DNA from: Candidatus Iainarchaeum sp.
GTDB taxonomy: Archaea; Iainarchaeota; Iainarchaeia; Iainarchaeales; 0-14-0-20-30-16
Length of the DNA: 7,406 nt
Assembly (NCBI GenBank): GCA_903916665.1
Contig: CAIWXP010000049.1
Span: 1 to 7,406 of the forward strand
Direction of reading: 5' to 3'
Shown here: positions 237 through 7,406 of the stretch, one piece after another
Position numbering within the stretch: position 1 is the stretch's first letter
Layout: each line of letters begins with the position of its first letter
Notes under the pieces: generated by a model
What the model was told of the DNA's origin: nothing
The model's database searches: none
What the model saw: only the letters and a program-made list of their open reading frames with translations
Translations under genes and position numbers: made by a program

Positions 237-242
237 AGAAAC

Positions 243-277
243 AAAAAAAGCCTGTAAAAATTTACAAGCTTTTTTTA
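243..277 (-). terminator. Rho-independent terminator of the T9SS cargo gene (bidirectional in form)
   Basis: The hairpin spans 249-270. On minus-strand RNA, AGCUUGUAA pairs with UUACAGGCU (including one G-U pair) and is followed by U7. An A7 run lies on the other side. It sits 16 nt downstream of the stop codon at 293-295. Confidence 0.7.
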
Positions 278-292
278 TTTTATAAACGTTTA

Positions 293-2236
293 TTATTGAA
301 TAACCAGTTTCCTTGATGAATTTGTCTCTTCGTTAAATATCCTTACCATATAAACGCCTTTAGCCAGATGTGAAAGGTCAATACGGGCAGTAGCATTTCC
401 AGTAATTTTATCAGCATATATGAGCTGCCCCAGTAATGAGTAAATAGCAATATCTGCGGGTTTATTAATCCCGGTTACTGAGAAGTTTGTTATTCCTGTT
501 GAGGGGTTAGGAACAAGGCTTACACTTATATTACTATTATTTTCATTAATGCCGACACAAGTTGTAAAGGTAACGCTGATAGTATCGGAGGCAGTACATG
601 CCCCTTTAGTAACACTAACAGCATATAAAAATGTTCCAACACCAACACTTGCCCCATTAATAGTAACTGACGGTGTTGTTTGTCCGCCAGACCACAAATA
701 AGAATCATAACCGGCGCCGGCATTAAGTACAATTGAACTGGTTACACATAAAGTAGTATCATGACCGAGATAAATATCATTAAATTTGGTAACAGCAACA
801 TCATCAGTAGCGGTACAACCCAATGCGTCGGTTACTGAAACTGTGTAGGTCGTGTTTGCAATAGGAGAAGCAACGAATGCGGCATTCGTATTCCCTCCCG
901 GGGTCCAAAGATAAGAACTCATACCAGGAGTTGCAGAGATAAGGACGGTACCTCCGGGACAAAAAATTGCAGGGTTAGCTGAAGCATTCGGTGCAGGAGC
1001 CGGATTTATTGTAACAATTACACTTTGTGAGGCAGAACAGCCATTAGAGCCTGTAACGGTAACTGTATAAGTTGTGATGACAGTAGGTGTTACCGTTAAA
1101 TTAGGCAAAGACCCCAGGGGGTGCCCGCTCCACTGATATGAAATGCCATTGGATGCCGATAGTACTGATGAGCTTCCCAGGCAAACTGCTGCAGGCGTAG
1201 CTGTTGCATTTGGGACAGGAGAAGGTGTGATTGTAATGCTTGTTAACATTGAATCAAGGTTATCGCAAGATCCGCCAAATACATAAAGTTTAACAGGATA
1301 TGTTCCTGCACTAGCGTAAGTTACTACAGGCACCAAAGCAGAAGATGTAGAGGGTGTAGCACCGGCCAGAACCCAATAAACAGAATTCTGTACAGAAGCA
1401 GAAGCATTTAATGTTACAGGAGACCCCGCACAAGTATTGGTTGCAGATTGCGTAAAGGAAGCATGGGCAAAAACATTTGTCATCACCGGAAATATAGCAA
1501 GAGAGATATTCAGCCCCCACGAACTGGCATTAGTATAACTATACCAATTATTATCTGTCTGCATTTCCCATGTAGCAGTAGGTGAAGTTTCAGGATCTAC
1601 ATTACTCTGGATGCTAAGCGTATCATGAGATGTTGTCCAGTCTAATCCGCTCATGTCAATACCCATAAAAAAGGCTGCTCCTGATACAAGCACAGGACTA
1701 GCAAAGTGAACGTCAGTAAAATAATTACCATTTACATCGGTCATTAATTTCTGCATAGTGACTGTTTGTGAAGCGAGCACCGTGCCGGGATTACCACTGA
1801 CGACATTCCAAATCTTTACTGTGACGGTTTTTGAAGGGGTAGTTGAATACGCTTTTGCCAAAGCTATCATGCCGCCAAGAACATATGTGTTGGCGCCCGT
1901 ATTCGGGAAATAAGCAGCTTTGACTTTATCACCATAGGTATTTACACCATTTACAAAGCCTGAAGAAAATTGTGGGGTTGCCGTAACTGAATAGCTTGTA
2001 ACCGTCCACGTGTTTTTATAAGCGTTCAAATTCAGCGTATCGCATGCCGATTTTGAAGAATTCTTTTTGGCAAATAATGCAGTATTTGAGGGTGCTGATT
2101 TACCCTGAAAATCGCGTGCTGCTGAAACCGATTTTGCTGGTTTGGCTTTAATTTTATTTTGTGCATTGGCCGCAGTGCCGATTGAAAAGAAAACAACGGT
2201 GAAGGTTAATGCAATGCAAAGTAATTTTGTTTTCAT
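293..2236 (-). CDS. Secreted multidomain cell-surface protein, T9SS (Por) cargo: signal peptide, unknown N-terminal domain, PKD-like domain, three Cys-bracketed Ig-like repeats, T9SS C-terminal sorting domain
   Basis: A complete 647-aa ORF is in the supplied track. The N-terminus MKTKLLCIALTFTVVFFSIGTAANA|Q is a typical Sec signal peptide. The C-terminal ~80 aa (VSLVPNPSTGITNFSV...IYSLLGQLIY...LAKGVYMVRI...KLVIQ) matches the Bacteroidota T9SS sorting-domain pattern. A terminator lies downstream and a promoter-like box upstream. Confidence 0.9.
   Translation of the reverse strand: MKTKLLCIALTFTVVFFSIGTAANAQNKIKAKPAKSVSAARDFQGKSAPSNTALFAKKNSSKSACDTLNLNAYKNTWTVTSYSVTATPQFSSGFVNGVNTYGDKVKAAYFPNTGANTYVLGGMIALAKAYSTTPSKTVTVKIWNVVSGNPGTVLASQTVTMQKLMTDVNGNYFTDVHFASPVLVSGAAFFMGIDMSGLDWTTSHDTLSIQSNVDPETSPTATWEMQTDNNWYSYTNASSWGLNISLAIFPVMTNVFAHASFTQSATNTCAGSPVTLNASASVQNSVYWVLAGATPSTSSALVPVVTYASAGTYPVKLYVFGGSCDNLDSMLTSITITPSPVPNATATPAAVCLGSSSVLSASNGISYQWSGHPLGSLPNLTVTPTVITTYTVTVTGSNGCSASQSVIVTINPAPAPNASANPAIFCPGGTVLISATPGMSSYLWTPGGNTNAAFVASPIANTTYTVSVTDALGCTATDDVAVTKFNDIYLGHDTTLCVTSSIVLNAGAGYDSYLWSGGQTTPSVTINGASVGVGTFLYAVSVTKGACTASDTISVTFTTCVGINENNSNISVSLVPNPSTGITNFSVTGINKPADIAIYSLLGQLIYADKITGNATARIDLSHLAKGVYMVRIFNEETNSSRKLVIQ
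296..535 (-). other. T9SS C-terminal sorting domain (aa ~568-647)
   Basis: The motifs VPNPSTG, IYSLLGQ, LxxGVYMVRI and a terminal KLVIQ are the conserved strands of the Por secretion-tail family (TIGR04183-type). I recognised this from the translation and ran no search. Confidence 0.8.
551..1216 (-). other. Three tandem ~72-77 aa Cys-bracketed Ig-like repeats (aa 341-412, 413-485, 486-562)
   Basis: The recurring pattern is C-x-G-x(3-4)-L-x-A..(S/G)Y-x-W-(S/T)..G....TY-x-V-x-V-T...GC-x-A-(S/T)-(D/Q)..V-x-V. Examples are VCLGSSSVLSASNGISYQWSG...YTVTVTGSNGCSASQSVIVTI and FCPGGTVLISATPGMSSYLWTPGG...YTVSVTDALGCTATDDVAVT. Confidence 0.6.
1226..1465 (-). other. PKD-like Ig-fold domain (aa ~258-337)
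   Basis: ASFTQSATNTCAGSPVTLNASAS...YWVLAGATPSTSS...VTYASAGTYPVKLYVFGGSCD follows the PKD pattern (F..C.G..V.F...S...W.F..G..S......Y...G.Y.V.L.V). The assignment is from the motif only. Confidence 0.5.
2162..2236 (-). other. Sec-type signal peptide (aa 1-25)
   Basis: It has a basic n-region (MKTK), a hydrophobic core (LLCIALTFTVVFFSIG) and an A-x-A cleavage motif (ANA before Q). Confidence 0.75.
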
Positions 2237-2284
2237 GTAATACTGTTTTAGTAAATAATAAGATTGTGGCTTGAATTAACGACA

Positions 2285-2292
2285 CAAATCTA
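2285..2292 (-). promoter_or_regulatory. Candidate Bacteroidota -7 promoter box (TAGATTTG on the minus strand) for the T9SS cargo gene
   Basis: It is an exact match to TAnnTTTG, 49 nt upstream of the ATG at 2236, within an AT-rich intergenic region. A TTTG lies immediately upstream but not at the canonical -33 spacing. Confidence 0.4.
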
Positions 2293-2363
2293 CAAAACTT
2301 TTATTAAACAAGATAAAATGTTTATTGATTTTATTTTGTTCTAAAAACAATAGCTATAAAAAC

Positions 2364-2392
2364 AAAAAAAGCCTGCAGAATTTCTACAGGCT
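2364..2392 (-). terminator. Rho-independent terminator of the truncated T9SS paralogue
   Basis: On minus-strand RNA, AGCCUGUAG pairs with CUGCAGGCU (one G-U pair), leaving a 5-nt AAAUU loop, and is followed by U7 (plus-strand A7 at 2364-2370). It lies ~25 nt downstream of the stop at 2417-2419. Its layout parallels the terminator at 243-277. Confidence 0.65.
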
Positions 2393-2416
2393 TTCAAATG
2401 CTCTTTTAAATGTTGA

Positions 2417-2569
2417 TTATTGAATAACCAGTTTTCTTAATGAATTTGTTTCTTCATTAAATATTCTTACCATATAAACGCCCTTAGGCAGATGCGATAG
2501 GTCTATACGGGTTGTTGTGTTACCGTTAATTTTATCAGCATACATAAGCTGTCCAAGCAATGAGTAAAT
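2417..2569 (-). pseudogene. 3' fragment (last 50 codons plus stop) of a paralogous T9SS cargo gene, truncated at the composition junction
   Basis: Minus-strand translation gives IYSLLGQLMYADKINGNTTTRIDLSHLPKGVYMVRIFNEETNSLRKLVIQ*. An ungapped hand alignment of 2417-2569 to 293-445 shows 130 of 153 identical nt (85%). Similarity stops dead at 2569/2570, and no remaining part of the gene is present. Confidence 0.8.
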
Positions 2570-2922
2570 GTAATGGATTATTAAGTAATAAGTTTGTAGA
2601 TTTTTATGCCATTTATGAAAATAAACTTTATGATGGTAATAAATTATTTAAATTAGATGATTCAAAAGATAGTTTGGTTTTAAGAAATGATCAATTAAAA
2701 GGAGTACAGTTAATAGTAATTAAATCATTAGAAGAAGAATCTAATTCTGGTTGTAATGGTAATTGGCAAAACTATTCTCTAAATAGTATGCAAGATGTTA
2801 TTGATAATTTTAATACTAAAAACATATTATATTTGACTATTCCTGAAGATGGCGAGAATCCAATGTTTGTATATATTTGGGATCACAATGCGTTGATACA
2901 TAACCCTTACACTTGTAGCTAA
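2560..2922 (+). CDS. Small hypothetical protein (120 aa as listed); N-terminus unreliable, possibly the 3' part of a gene cut by the junction
   Basis: This ORF is in the supplied track. Its ATG (2560-2562) lies in the Bacteroidota-like block, while everything from codon 4 onward is in the ~25% GC block, and the next in-frame Met is far downstream. Codon usage (TTA, AAT, GAT, AAA) matches the giant ORF downstream. I recognised no motif. Confidence 0.45.
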   Translation: MSKCNGLLSNKFVDFYAIYENKLYDGNKLFKLDDSKDSLVLRNDQLKGVQLIVIKSLEEESNSGCNGNWQNYSLNSMQDVIDNFNTKNILYLTIPEDGENPMFVYIWDHNALIHNPYTCS

Positions 2923-2996
2923 TTATTAACTCATTTAGTTACCTTTATAAATCTTCATAGCTATATTTTATCACATATTAATTATATTATATAGTT

Positions 2997-3007
2997 AGGA
3001 TAGGGGA
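2997..3007 (+). promoter_or_regulatory. Shine-Dalgarno-like purine tract AGGAtAGGGGA upstream of the giant ORF
   Basis: The G-rich tract ends 5 nt before ATG 3013 and is the only G-rich patch in a 90-nt AT-rich intergenic region. The match to GGAGG/GGTGAT is imperfect. Confidence 0.3.
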
Positions 3008-3012
3008 TAATT

Positions 3013-6000
3013 ATGGCTATTGATCAAGAATTACAAAACTCAGATATAGGGGAGTTACAAAGTGAAATTAAAGCAACAAAGGGATTTCCTTGGAAACCAA
3101 TAATAATAGTTGCATCTATTCTAATTGTTTTAATAGCAGGATTATTAACCTATTTATTTGTGTTACCACATAACGCAGATGTAACATTTTCATTTTTCTT
3201 AAACGATTCCCCTGTTGCAGAAAATCTAAATGTTCAATTGTCCTACGGTAGTACTGTTTTAGATTTAAACAGTGATAAAAATATATTATTAGTAAGCTTA
3301 CCTAAAAATGTTGATGTTAAGCTAAATATTACAACAACAGGTTATCAAATAACAAAAAATTATTATACTGATTCTGATTTATTTAAAGTAAATATAATCA
3401 AACCAGTTAATGTTGAAGAGGTTGCAAAATTACAAGGTCCGACTCAAGAAATTGTTAATTTTAAAATTTATAAATATCCTACAACAACTATATTATACTC
3501 AAGTCCTATATTATTAAATTTAAGTTGTTCTAGTTCTGGAAAATCAGATCAAATAACAGTTAATGGTTCACAAAGTTACACTAAACCAGATAACTGTGGT
3601 TCTTTAGTAGTAACAGGAAATCCAGATGGATTTAAAGCAGTAAACCAAAGATGTGGAGATAGTTGTCAAATAATATTATATGACGATGTTCAAGTAACCC
3701 CTCAACAAGTTGTTGACGTATCTAAAAATAATTTAGTTATAAAAACGATTACTAAATTTGATAATACTGTAATTCCCGATGTAAATGTTGTTTTAAGTCA
3801 AAATAGTTCTTTTTTGTCAGAAGGAATAACAGATGAAAATGGATATTTAGAATTTATTGATTTGCCTTTAGGAGACTATGCTATAAATGCATCGATAAAA
3901 TTGAAAAATAAAATATATTCATTAGCAGATGATGTTAATATTTATTTAGATAGTAATTCAATAACAAAAGTGTTATTATTTAATATTGGAAAAGGTGGCT
4001 CAGGTAATGATTGGGTTTCTGCAAATGATTCTCAAAATAGTACTTTATCATTAACTATAAAAACATTTGATGGTAATGATTGTAATGTTGGCATAGATAT
4101 TTTTGATGTTAATGGAAAAACAATCACTGATCCTCAAGGAGTGTTAATTAACGCAAATGAGAAACAAGAATTTGATTTTGGCTCAGAAAATGGAAATTAT
4201 TTTATAGATGCAATACCTATAGATAATTGTCAATTTAAATATCTTCCAATATATAATTATCCTTTTGATTTTGCAAAAACTAAAGATATAAGTTTAACTT
4301 TACAAGATTTTAATAAATTACAATATTTCATATTGAATGTTCAACCTACAATTTTTGGAGAAAATAAAACAGGAATTAATGTTTCAATTTCAGATGTAAA
4401 TTATATTAAGAATATAATATTGTCTGGATTAGTAACTCAAGATCCAAGCGAATTATATTTTGTTTTAAAGAATGATATAAATTATTATGTAACTGCAAAT
4501 TTAGTTAATGCATTAGGTACAAATGATTACAATGGAAGTACATATTATGAATATATTAAAAATAAAACTATAACTGCAAAAAAAGATGATTCAAATTATT
4601 ATACTGATAGGATAAACTTACCTTTACAATATGTTGGTGCAAACATTGATTTAAACTTAAATGTTTTGTTTGAAAACGAACAAACACACGAATTTAAAGT
4701 TTATGCACAATACAATAATTTAACAGTAGAATTTGACGGCAATAATAGTTTAGCGCAATTAAAAGTGCCAAAAGATACAATGATTAATTTAATAATAGAT
4801 TATAATATAGTAACTTCACAATATCCTCTTGTTTTTGTAGCTCCAGGTACAGATCTTAAAACAATTACAAATAATCCAATTGAAGTAACAAATCAATTTG
4901 TTTATTACTTTAATCCATTATCTTTTAGTAATTCAACAACAATAAATGCAAATATTGATCCAAGTATTAAAGAACCTAAAGCATTTAAGGATGAAGTATA
5001 CAATGATTCTGCTTTAACAAATTCAGTTAAAGATAAGAATGTTTTAGCAAATAAAGATTATTATTTAGGATTTGATGTTGTATTGCAAAATATTACAAAT
5101 TTTAATTGTTTAGACAGAATAAATAAAGGTGCAGCAGATCCGGGAAAGCAAGATAAATCAAAATGTAATGAAAAATTAAGTGCATTTTATGCAAAAGATG
5201 TATCTCCAAATGTATTTGATATTAAAAATATATCAAATGAAACAGTACAATCAACGGATGATAATTATTATTATGTTTTAAATAGTTTAGATAATACTAT
5301 GGGCGAAACTGATATGACAACAAGAATTATGAGATATGTTGTTAAAATAACTCCAAATGAGTTATCTAGCGGTAAAACAGGTATATTCAATTATGGTGCA
5401 TTGTTTAATGAAAATCAGAGTAGTAAAGATGTATCTATAGAACCAAACCTAAGCAAAGATAAAAATATTGAATTTTATGTTGATGGCAAAAAAGCATTAA
5501 CTGACTTTCCGCCCTATGTGTTAAATGCTTTGGATAAAGGAATGGATATTTATTCAATGTCTTCAGAAATGTCAGCTCTTTTAAAATATACATTTACAAA
5601 TTTTGTTGATGTAAATATTAATGGTCCTGAAAAACAAACTGGAGAAATATTTGTTTTGGCCAAAGGAAATTGTTATACAGTTAAAACTGCAAATTGGACT
5701 TCAAAAGTATCTAATTTACAAAATTGGGCAAATGATTTATATGTTGCAACATTTACAAAATTTTTTAGTTTAGATAAAGGAATTGTGGACAAAAATATTT
5801 TATCAGATGGTAAATTAGAATTAAGTATGGATTTGAATTTAAATTTATTAAAAACTATGAATTTACCAGACTCAATAGATGCTAAATTAGATTTGAACTT
5901 ACAAGAAATTGCATGTTCAAAAATAAATGTAGGCACAACAACAGTAAGACCAAATACGGGATTTAGTAATTCTGATATTATAAATGAAGTAATAAAAAAT

Positions 6001-7406
6001 AATAAAGTTAATACGACAGAAATTATAAAAGAAACAAAAGACTTAACAAGACAAATTAGACCTACAACCATTGATATGAGTAAGTTACCAATACCTCCAA
6101 GACCGGTAGAAAATACAGGTTTAACTTCAGATACAATGATAGATTCTAGAACTAATGTTTCTTCAAATACTGTTACAAATTCAATAATTAATGCAAATTG
6201 GAATGTTAGAACAAATATGATTGCAAATACAAATGTTATTAAAATTAATACTAGTTTTGTTAATACTAATTATAAATCTAGTCCTATTCAAAATAATCAT
6301 TTAGATGCTCCTATTGAAAATAATTCTGCAATATACTTTGGTGCTGGCATTAGTGCAAGTACTGGTTATGAAGTAAGTGGTTCTATGTCAAACAGCAAAT
6401 TATCTGTTGCAATTAATCCAAATGCAGATAATATTTCTGCAGGCAATAAAAATACTATAACTGATGCTACTGCAGTGCCGGCAGTTTCACAATATGTTAA
6501 TATAACTGTGCCTGTAACTTTTATAATTCATGATAGTAGTAAACCAACTAAAGATTGTGTTATCATTAAATACAATAAAGAAACAAATGAATTGGGATTA
6601 AGCGTAGATACTGGAAAATGTGGTTTTGATACTAACTATTCGTATATATTGATGAATAACAATATTAAAACTACTGGAAAATTGTCTCACACCATAGACT
6701 TAAACTATGGAGATTATGATTTGAATATTTATTATTTGGTTAAAAACCAACCAAAGTTTTTAGAAAATAGTAAAAGTAGTGTAATGCCAGAAACAGCAGA
6801 CTCTTCTTTTTTATATTCTCCAAGAGTTAGAATTCCTATAAAATATGGTAAAACTATTGATTGTAGTAAGTTATATTGTAGTTATGAACAATTACAAAAC
6901 TATAATAAATTATCCATTAAATCAAATAATCCTCTTTTAATGGATGATAATTTTATTTCGGATTCTAGTGTAAGTAAAGAAAATAAAGAAACTGCATTAG
7001 TAGACAAAGATAATAGATCTTTAATTGCGGCAACAATAGATTTAACAAATAATTTGTTTTATCACATACCGTATAAGAGTGATTCTAGTTACTATGGTTT
7101 ACCTGTAGGATCCTGCGCAACAGAATCAACAATCAATTATATTGGTTCAGATGAAATGTTAAATTGTGGTACTGGTGTTACTGCATTTAAAAATATTATT
7201 ATTAATGATTTATCTTCAAAAAGATCATCAAATCTAAATACTGCTTTAATAGGAATAGTAAAAGATAATACTATAACTTTAGATTATTATTCTGCACCAG
7301 GATTAGCAGTTTATGATTGTAGTGTAAATATTGAAAGTTGTTTCAAAACTTTTGGCAAAGATAATGCCTATCTATATTATAGAAACAATATTTATTTTGC
7401 AAAAGA
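3013..7406 (+). CDS. Giant membrane-anchored surface protein, partial (1,464 codons, 3' end beyond the window); not present in the supplied ORF track
   Basis: I translated frame +1 codon by codon from 3013 to 7406 and found no TAA, TAG or TGA. An in-frame TAG at 3001-3003 fixes ATG 3013 as the first possible start. At ~25% GC a random frame should hit a stop roughly every 11 codons. The product begins MAIDQELQNSDIGELQSEIKATKGFPWKPIIIVASILIVLIAGLLTYLFVLP, followed by a long hydrophilic Asn-rich ectodomain. Confidence 0.85.
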   Translation, partial: MAIDQELQNSDIGELQSEIKATKGFPWKPIIIVASILIVLIAGLLTYLFVLPHNADVTFSFFLNDSPVAENLNVQLSYGSTVLDLNSDKNILLVSLPKNVDVKLNITTTGYQITKNYYTDSDLFKVNIIKPVNVEEVAKLQGPTQEIVNFKIYKYPTTTILYSSPILLNLSCSSSGKSDQITVNGSQSYTKPDNCGSLVVTGNPDGFKAVNQRCGDSCQIILYDDVQVTPQQVVDVSKNNLVIKTITKFDNTVIPDVNVVLSQNSSFLSEGITDENGYLEFIDLPLGDYAINASIKLKNKIYSLADDVNIYLDSNSITKVLLFNIGKGGSGNDWVSANDSQNSTLSLTIKTFDGNDCNVGIDIFDVNGKTITDPQGVLINANEKQEFDFGSENGNYFIDAIPIDNCQFKYLPIYNYPFDFAKTKDISLTLQDFNKLQYFILNVQPTIFGENKTGINVSISDVNYIKNIILSGLVTQDPSELYFVLKNDINYYVTANLVNALGTNDYNGSTYYEYIKNKTITAKKDDSNYYTDRINLPLQYVGANIDLNLNVLFENEQTHEFKVYAQYNNLTVEFDGNNSLAQLKVPKDTMINLIIDYNIVTSQYPLVFVAPGTDLKTITNNPIEVTNQFVYYFNPLSFSNSTTINANIDPSIKEPKAFKDEVYNDSALTNSVKDKNVLANKDYYLGFDVVLQNITNFNCLDRINKGAADPGKQDKSKCNEKLSAFYAKDVSPNVFDIKNISNETVQSTDDNYYYVLNSLDNTMGETDMTTRIMRYVVKITPNELSSGKTGIFNYGALFNENQSSKDVSIEPNLSKDKNIEFYVDGKKALTDFPPYVLNALDKGMDIYSMSSEMSALLKYTFTNFVDVNINGPEKQTGEIFVLAKGNCYTVKTANWTSKVSNLQNWANDLYVATFTKFFSLDKGIVDKNILSDGKLELSMDLNLNLLKTMNLPDSIDAKLDLNLQEIACSKINVGTTTVRPNTGFSNSDIINEVIKNNKVNTTEIIKETKDLTRQIRPTTIDMSKLPIPPRPVENTGLTSDTMIDSRTNVSSNTVTNSIINANWNVRTNMIANTNVIKINTSFVNTNYKSSPIQNNHLDAPIENNSAIYFGAGISASTGYEVSGSMSNSKLSVAINPNADNISAGNKNTITDATAVPAVSQYVNITVPVTFIIHDSSKPTKDCVIIKYNKETNELGLSVDTGKCGFDTNYSYILMNNNIKTTGKLSHTIDLNYGDYDLNIYYLVKNQPKFLENSKSSVMPETADSSFLYSPRVRIPIKYGKTIDCSKLYCSYEQLQNYNKLSIKSNNPLLMDDNFISDSSVSKENKETALVDKDNRSLIAATIDLTNNLFYHIPYKSDSSYYGLPVGSCATESTINYIGSDEMLNCGTGVTAFKNIIINDLSSKRSSNLNTALIGIVKDNTITLDYYSAPGLAVYDCSVNIESCFKTFGKDNAYLYYRNNIYFAK
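3094..3165 (+). other. Single N-terminal transmembrane anchor (aa ~28-51) of the giant protein
   Basis: The ~24-residue hydrophobic run KPIIIVASILIVLIAGLLTYLFVL follows a 27-aa charged segment. No A-x-A cleavage site follows it, so it looks like a signal anchor. It is the only long hydrophobic stretch in the 1,464 aa. Confidence 0.75.
3727..3987 (+). other. Carboxypeptidase-regulatory-like / Cna-B-like beta-sandwich domain in the giant protein
   Basis: NNLVIKTITKFDNTVIPDVNVVLSQNSSFLSEGITDENGYLEFIDLPLGDYAINA...VNIYLDSNSITKVLLFNI contains the hallmark V-x-V-x-L......T-D-x-N-G-x-(F/Y/L)-x-F..L-P-x-G-x-Y of the CarboxypepD_reg / Cna-B fold families. The assignment is from the motif only. Confidence 0.55.
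4039..4308 (+). other. Second, more divergent beta-sandwich-like module in the giant protein
   Basis: STLSLTIKTFDGNDCNVGIDIFDVNGKTITDPQG...FDFGSENGNYFIDAIPIDNC...ISLTLQD repeats the pattern of alternating strands plus ENGNY-F-x-x-x-x-P and is bracketed by a Cys pair. The match is weaker than for the preceding module. Confidence 0.35.

Follow-up and report, generated by a model that had tools for sequence, protein, structure and literature searches.

A public contig carrying Bacteroidota T9SS cargo-gene DNA next to an archaeal tandem giant-protein locus is very probably an artefactual inter-genome chimera

Inter-species translocations are reported to be the most frequent type of misassembly in the metagenome assemblies of the CAMI benchmark (metaMIC preprint, doi 10.1101/2021.06.22.449514). 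In misassemblies of this type, as treated by MetaQUAST and metaMIC, taxonomic affinity, composition and codon usage all switch at the join, while both flanks are otherwise correct and collinear. The contig described here shares these properties, a likeness drawn from its sequence alone, but differs in that its join crosses domains of life and occurs without obviously shared or conserved sequence. AT-rich DNA lying beside a disrupted host gene is also seen with genomic islands and integrative elements; here, however, it comes without a recombinase, att repeat or tRNA, starts inside a gene of its own and displays archaeal synteny. Two further systems provide points of reference for the individual halves of the contig. 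Among T9SS cargo proteins with the type A sorting domain (PF18962 / TIGR04183), the intact gene on the left is typical in having the full domain, whereas the fragment beside it retains the C-terminal two thirds and is devoid of the first ~25 domain positions and of all cargo sequence. DPANN archaea are known to encode giant surface proteins, such as those of the SPEARE type in nanohaloarchaea (PMC10266531). The proteins encoded on the right resemble these in architecture, namely in their very large size, their small AT-rich archaeal context, an N-terminal anchor and an ectodomain of tandem Ig-like beta-sandwiches. They differ from them in being 1,100-2,500 aa rather than about 9,000 aa in length, in being encoded by tandem paralogues followed by five small membrane-protein genes, and in that a domain search of the window's giant ORF turned up neither a VirB4-like ATPase nor an enzymatic domain of another kind.

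The window, by which we mean the whole stretch of DNA that was analysed, is one entire public contig of 7,406 bp that is free of N runs. Its features are collected in Table 1. The 647-aa T9SS protein (P0001) and the 120-aa ORF at 2560-2922 (P0121) each constitute a single-member protein cluster, recorded from just one contig of exactly 7,406 bp in NCBI and ENA. Translation with an alternative genetic code (table 4) was also tried and left the ORF picture unchanged. A taxonomic assignment of each side separately, as had been proposed in a first-pass annotation of this DNA, placed the left side in the Bacteroidota and the right side among AT-rich archaea. Together with the gene-level comparisons given below, this identifies 1-2569 as a collinear stretch of Bacteroidota chromosome and 2570-7406 as one of an AT-rich archaeal chromosome.

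Table 1. Features of the 7,406-bp window
Feature	Position	Strand	Basis or remark
ORF start (MLHFNLNTGLLLTADSEEQELTVPGG...), running off the left contig end	1-78	(-)	translation; left block, 32% GC over 1-292
Intrinsic-terminator-like hairpin with T-run, just downstream of the intact T9SS gene	239-280	(-)	
Intact T9SS cargo gene, 647 aa, 41.9% GC	293-2236	(-)	
AT-rich intergenic region, 180 nt, 24% GC	2237-2416		
TAGATTTG, match to the Bacteroidota -7 motif	2285-2292	(-)	consensus match only
Intrinsic-terminator-like hairpin (13 pairs) with T-run, downstream of the T9SS fragment	2367-2395	(-)	
Truncated second T9SS cargo gene, 3'-terminal 50 codons + stop	2417-2569	(-)	
Crossover zone, 11 nt (AATGAGTAAAT)	2559-2569		paralogue identity and reading frame into the archaeal ORF
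5'-truncated archaeal giant-protein paralogue, last ~116 codons + stop	2570-2922	(+)	
Archaeal intergenic spacer, 90 nt, 20% GC	2923-3012	(+)	
Giant ORF, at least 1,464 codons, 26% GC, running off the right contig end	3013-7406 (codons to 7404)	(+)	

The boundary between the two pieces is marked by the end of a direct repeat. Bases 2404-2569 repeat the 3' end of the intact T9SS gene (280-445) with 84% identity over 166 nt. The match stops exactly at 2569, which bears out the break in homology at 2569/2570 on which the first-pass annotation was built. The terminator regions of the two T9SS genes are paralogous too (239-262 versus 2360-2383). The likeness of 239-445 to 2360-2569 suggests that adjacent cargo genes have recently undergone duplication or gene conversion. 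We noted that at a related locus (L004, see below) the corresponding ends of the adjacent T9SS genes are divergent, unlike the 84% DNA identity seen in the window. All comparisons taken together place the switch in lineage at a single point within 2559-2596. The final 11 nt of the repeat (AATGAGTAAAT) are the same as in the T9SS paralogue and are also in frame with the archaeal ORF, where they read M S K C. As 2559-2569 could thus be attributed to either parent, the join cannot be placed more finely, and the earlier statement that it falls inside a codon of the sorting domain could not be confirmed. Genes on both sides of the junction are without their 5' parts, yet neither fragment is decayed: the frames of both the T9SS and the archaeal fragment are open and the conserved residues are kept. 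This implies that the join is either artificial or extremely recent.

The first-pass annotation had also reported that no terminal inverted repeat, integrase, transposase or tRNA lies at the boundary, and our searches agree with this. A tRNA search of the window returned none, and no Rfam match in the window reached its gathering score. All ORFs, including those of the visible 4.8 kb of AT-rich DNA, were devoid of integrase or transposase domains in searches with Pfam and NCBIfam, and no meaningful terminal inverted repeat, target duplication or att site was recovered at the one visible boundary. A 30-mer spanning the junction was not present in JGI metagenome contigs; a 26-mer from the T9SS side was not found either, and neither parent strain was encountered elsewhere. 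The absence of the junction from other data is therefore weak evidence, because the parent strains themselves were not found there and the native gene orders of the two sides were encountered in more distant relatives only. Among the loci examined, no relative of either side displayed an association of T9SS genes with the giant-protein family.

It should be noted that this boundary is located by homology and not by composition. In bulk, the intact T9SS gene and the giant ORF are well separated at 41.9% versus 26.0% GC. The best single GC change point under maximum likelihood nevertheless falls at ~2217, where the intact T9SS gene has its 5' end, and a change point at 2569 is 11.5 log-likelihood units worse, so that the knife-edge change in GC previously claimed at 2570 is not borne out. 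The same applies to the range of 38-52% GC that had been given for sampled 60-nt lines to the left of the junction: the six lines from 2221 to 2580 read 23, 18, 30, 22, 42 and 32% GC. Immediately left of the junction, a stretch of 330 nt is itself at no more than 24-33% GC, the T9SS fragment being at 33%. Coding-sequence and oligonucleotide statistics separate the two halves. GC3 is 30% on the left versus 11-16% on the right. The reported shift in codon usage stood for leucine (TTA 27% versus 76%) and arginine (AGA 0/4 versus 15/16) but not for asparagine, for which the share of AAT (81% left, 88% right) does not discriminate between the halves. Tetranucleotide frequencies of the right half correlate at r of 0.96-0.98 with archaeal loci and at 0.71-0.89 with Bacteroidota loci. 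With composition-normalised tetranucleotides, the left half gives values of 0.65-0.67 with the Bacteroidota loci L001/L003 and of 0.42-0.45 with archaeal loci. Thus, the composition and tetranucleotide check proposed earlier shows flanks that differ from each other without a GC step at 2570, and the composition, oligonucleotide and codon signatures of each flank match those of its own lineage.

The intact gene of the left block encodes a protein that begins with a signal-peptide-like sequence, contains Ig_7/PKD-like repeats and ends in a type A sorting domain. Its named homologues are T9SS proteins of Bacteroidetes, Bacteroidia, Hymenobacter, Nibribacter and Fluviicola, the closest relative (P0002) sharing 70% identity. 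Upstream of the gene no Shine-Dalgarno-like motif was detected. On the minus strand, 48 nt upstream of its start codon, the sequence TAGATTTG fits TAnnTTTG, the Bacteroidota -7 promoter motif, making it a candidate promoter element by consensus. The genomic contexts of relatives were informative with respect to the interrupted neighbour. Directly upstream of P0002 lies a complete gene for a 1,273-aa MAM/Por_Secre_tail protein, and in the MAG GCA_013377115.1 (L004) a complete 1,234-aa Por_Secre_tail gene is likewise situated directly upstream of the T9SS homologue; relatives of the P0003 type have a different upstream context. The gene on the other side, 3' of the T9SS homologue, varies between relatives and encodes an amino-acid permease, a short-chain dehydrogenase or a protein of no assigned function.

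The second T9SS gene of the left block is represented by its end only. The minus-strand segment 2420-2569 matches PF18962 with E=2.6e-10 (40.9 bits versus a cutoff of 27) and TIGR04183 with E=7.9e-11 (41.8 bits versus a cutoff of 23), and covers these sorting-domain profiles only from position 25-26 to the end. Given that the start of the domain and the whole cargo part are gone, the fragment cannot be a functional cargo. In its closest homologue (P0138, 76% identity) the domain continues N-terminally (...PNPTTGITNFLVTGIKKYVDIH-IYSLLGQL...), and this preceding sequence of the P0138 type, PNPTTGITNFLVTGIKKYVDIH, is missing from the contig. A tblastn search with the T9SS proteins of a relative found no T9SS-like coding sequence to the right of 2569. 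A concatenated query of the T9SS fragment and the 120-aa ORF recovered only P0121 itself and the 76% identical sorting-domain homologue, and no native full-length gene for either part was found by this query. By synteny, the fragment is probably the end of a MAM/Por_Secre_tail gene of the kind that encodes ~1,234-1,273 aa in the relatives. Since it has a terminator of its own and occupies the position of that gene, ~1,200 codons would be missing. The first-pass annotation was therefore right that the remainder of the gene is absent to the right of the junction, and its figure of ~550 codons is probably too low.

On the archaeal side of the junction, a 124-codon open frame on the plus strand extends from 2548 to 2919. 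We generated a profile from five C-termini of the giant-protein family, with the window left out, and this matched the frame with E=1.2e-12 (HMM positions 37-128 of 138); no further match to this profile was found in the six-frame translation of the window. In the alignment to the family C-terminal domain the frame reads ...LNSMQDVIDNFNTKN...FVYIWDHNALI..., with both SMQDVIDNFN and YIWD present, and blastp likewise matched it to the C-termini of P0124 and of the upstream paralogue of locus L007 (L007_up1). Within the window there is no sequence N-terminal to this C-terminal domain. These alignments indicate that the 353 nt of 2570-2922 constitute the end (~116 codons) of a giant paralogue located upstream, of which at least the first 1,000 codons would be gone. 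The ATG at 2560 is fortuitous, and 2560-2922 is a gene fragment and not a gene. With the end of a cut archaeal gene at 2570-2922, genes are severed on both sides of one point. The first-pass annotation missed this mid-gene start of the AT-rich block, which is not a discrete element.

The spacer that follows contains A/T-rich, TATA-like runs at 2944-2951 and 2982-2993, which might act as a promoter. A Shine-Dalgarno-like GGGGAT at 3003-3008, a consensus match, precedes the ATG of the giant ORF by 4 nt, and GGGAT or GGGGAT with the same spacing is also present ahead of P0122, P0124 and the L008 upstream paralogue. The archaeal block is bounded by the junction (2570) and by the right end of the contig (7406). 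Both of these points fall at homologous positions of tandem paralogues, at most ~24 codons from the same conserved cysteine, and could mark an intragenomic repeat that breaks the assembly graph; there is no DNA identity between the two ends. We also considered whether the 120-aa ORF could be the missing end of the giant ORF itself, wrapped around as in a circular or tandem-permuted contig. This was rejected because ~24 homologous codons overlap with different residues and without DNA identity.

A word-indexed search with the giant ORF gave no match, and an exhaustive HMMER search against 1.84 billion representative proteins yielded 16 relatives. The best of these (P0122) aligns to residues 2-1096 with E=4.7e-114 and 34% identity. 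Alignments of the family contain four conserved cysteines near the N-terminus that are invariant (C172, C195, C214 and C218), and its members (P0122-P0129) share an N-terminal TM segment and a C-terminal domain of ~100 aa typified by ...LQDVIDNYN...YxW.... By alignment, the giant ORF ends ~110 codons short of the family C-terminus. An AlphaFold model of residues 1-700 (mean pLDDT 72) consists of a TM helix at 27-50 followed by beta-strand domains only. Foldseek searches with this model recovered multi-domain beta-sandwich surface proteins, pilins and adhesins with E down to 1e-10 and low TM-scores, the matches including TIE protein, PitA, BcpA and SdrD. Pfam matches to the giant ORF are limited to sub-threshold transthyretin-like ones at residues 246-294; no Pfam or NCBIfam family reaches its cutoff for the giant family, a PDB sequence search with the family profile produced nothing significant, and a scan of 2.9 million viral contigs did not detect the family. 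The modelled fold supports the prediction that the giant ORF product is a membrane-anchored surface protein in a generic sense. The giant family comprises very rare, archaeal, TM-anchored all-beta proteins for which there is no existing family name.

Further loci were sought with an alignment of four sequences, as one of nine proved too divergent. Among GTDB species representatives this detected one locus, in a genome labelled 'MAG TPA_asm: uncultured archaeon', with 20-29% GC, and other family members reside on contigs of 22-27% GC. Apart from the window (3013-7406), family loci are found in L005 (1053-4514), L006 (223-3507), L007 (1719-9421) and L008 (1-14620). The paralogues occur two or three in tandem, with short spacers between them in L007 and L008, as in the window at 2570-3013. 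The C-terminus of the L007 upstream paralogue (...INSLQDIIDYYNN...FYFWNLDYII...) is the same domain as that of P0124, P0125, P0126 and P0127. In L008 the family is followed on its 3' side by five small membrane-protein genes, a CofD-like gene and genes for a Drg-type GTPase, RpiA and TYW1. TYW1 is an archaeal/eukaryotic enzyme, and the L008 protein scores 360 bits versus the NCBIfam cutoff of 318. L006 has the CofD, GTPase and RpiA neighbours in common with L008. The source of the right block is an uncultured archaeon, one that is probably of the DPANN type.

Several other features of these loci were observed in passing. Directly 3' of the giant paralogues there is a block of 4-5 genes for polytopic membrane proteins (78-146 aa) without family annotation, at 4885-6531 in L006, 9502-11102 in L007 and 14673-16439 in L008, followed by CofD/YvcK-like, Drg-type GTPase and RpiA genes. 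The giant paralogues and the small membrane-protein genes may form a conserved surface-apparatus gene cluster. P0123 of L006 (1,094 aa) and P0124 of L007 (1,400 aa), which come from different samples, are nearly identical over their first ~110 residues and in the DNA upstream, and then diverge; this pattern hints at mosaic or rapidly diversifying ectodomains. Immediately upstream of P0122, at 163-917 of L005, lies a toxin-antitoxin pair of HepT-like HEPN and MNT nucleotidyltransferase type.

The contig consists of pieces from two domains of life with genes cut on both sides of one point, neither of them decayed, with no hallmarks of mobility, as a singleton and in the form of a common type of misassembly. 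On these grounds we judge that it is very probably an inter-genome chimera, made during assembly or library preparation, and not the product of a natural gene transfer; we class the feature at 2569/2570 as not a real biological one. This is a conclusion from sequence, and it would work as follows. Two unrelated genomes from the same sample would have been joined artefactually. The left piece would run from the intact T9SS gene through the intergenic promoter and terminator region into the T9SS gene upstream of it, of which it keeps the final 50 codons. The right piece would run from the last ~116 codons of a giant paralogue across the 90-nt spacer into the paralogue that follows, and would hold the first 1,464 codons of that gene. 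The join could have come about at low coverage either by an assembler linking two contig tips via a short shared word, or through a chimeric DNA fragment from library preparation or amplification that was then assembled. There would be no biology at the junction, and the fragment ORFs would be by-products. Two considerations stand against an artefact. Graph chimeras usually form at shared sequence, which here amounts to at most 11 nt (2559-2569) and is below usual k-mers, and natural illegitimate recombination of a random fragment would likewise cut genes on both sides. The latter process leads to the main alternative, a very recent, microhomology-mediated illegitimate integration of at least 4.8 kb of archaeal DNA into a T9SS gene, or the reverse. 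A random fragment would give arbitrary ends and hence the severed genes seen, the stretch of at most 11 nt at the crossover is a possible microhomology, and no long shared repeat is available to account for a graph-based misjoin. Nevertheless, the junction has not been seen independently, composition, codon usage and expression signals are wholly unameliorated on both sides, it is not plausible that archaeal genes would function or be expressed in a Bacteroidota cell, and such an association is not seen in any relative of either side. As the prior for such an event is also far below that for inter-genome misassembly, we consider a real junction of this kind unlikely.

The first-pass annotation had offered an insertion of foreign DNA or a chimeric join as the two explanations. 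The chimeric join is favoured by our analysis, and the insertion is not, as the AT-rich block begins in the middle of a gene without the hallmarks of an element. An integrative element, transposon, prophage or other genomic island lodged in the T9SS gene would be in keeping with the contrast in composition and the disrupted target gene. Against this, in addition to the mid-gene start, the visible end has no integrase, transposase, inverted repeat or tRNA, the genes of the block are syntenic with archaeal chromosomal loci that include housekeeping genes, and the giant family is missing from the viral contigs searched; we regard a mobile element as very improbable. It is hardly credible, too, that the whole contig is native to one organism, for example a member of the Bacteroidota with a long-resident AT-rich locus and a decayed T9SS pseudogene. 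The AT-rich 330 nt to the left of the junction, which leave composition alone without a step at 2570, fit that explanation. However, all relatives of the giant family are on archaeal-type contigs of 22-27% GC, GC3 is 11% on one side versus 30% on the other, a truncated archaeal domain abuts a truncated T9SS domain with neither of them decayed, and related Bacteroidota, as far as relatives were examined, are without the giant family.

A public contig that fuses bacterial and archaeal DNA in this manner would mislead binning, taxonomic calls and the inference of HGT. As the first-pass annotation foresaw, everything to the right of 2570 has to be interpreted anew: the right 4.8 kb calls for annotation as archaeal DNA, and 2560-2922 as a gene fragment. 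A real join would offer a rare view of an unameliorated inter-domain transfer of a giant surface-protein locus in which a T9SS cargo gene was destroyed; nothing here supports a real join over an artefact. As a minor by-product, the archaeal half of the contig puts on record a very rare family of giant surface proteins encoded in tandem.
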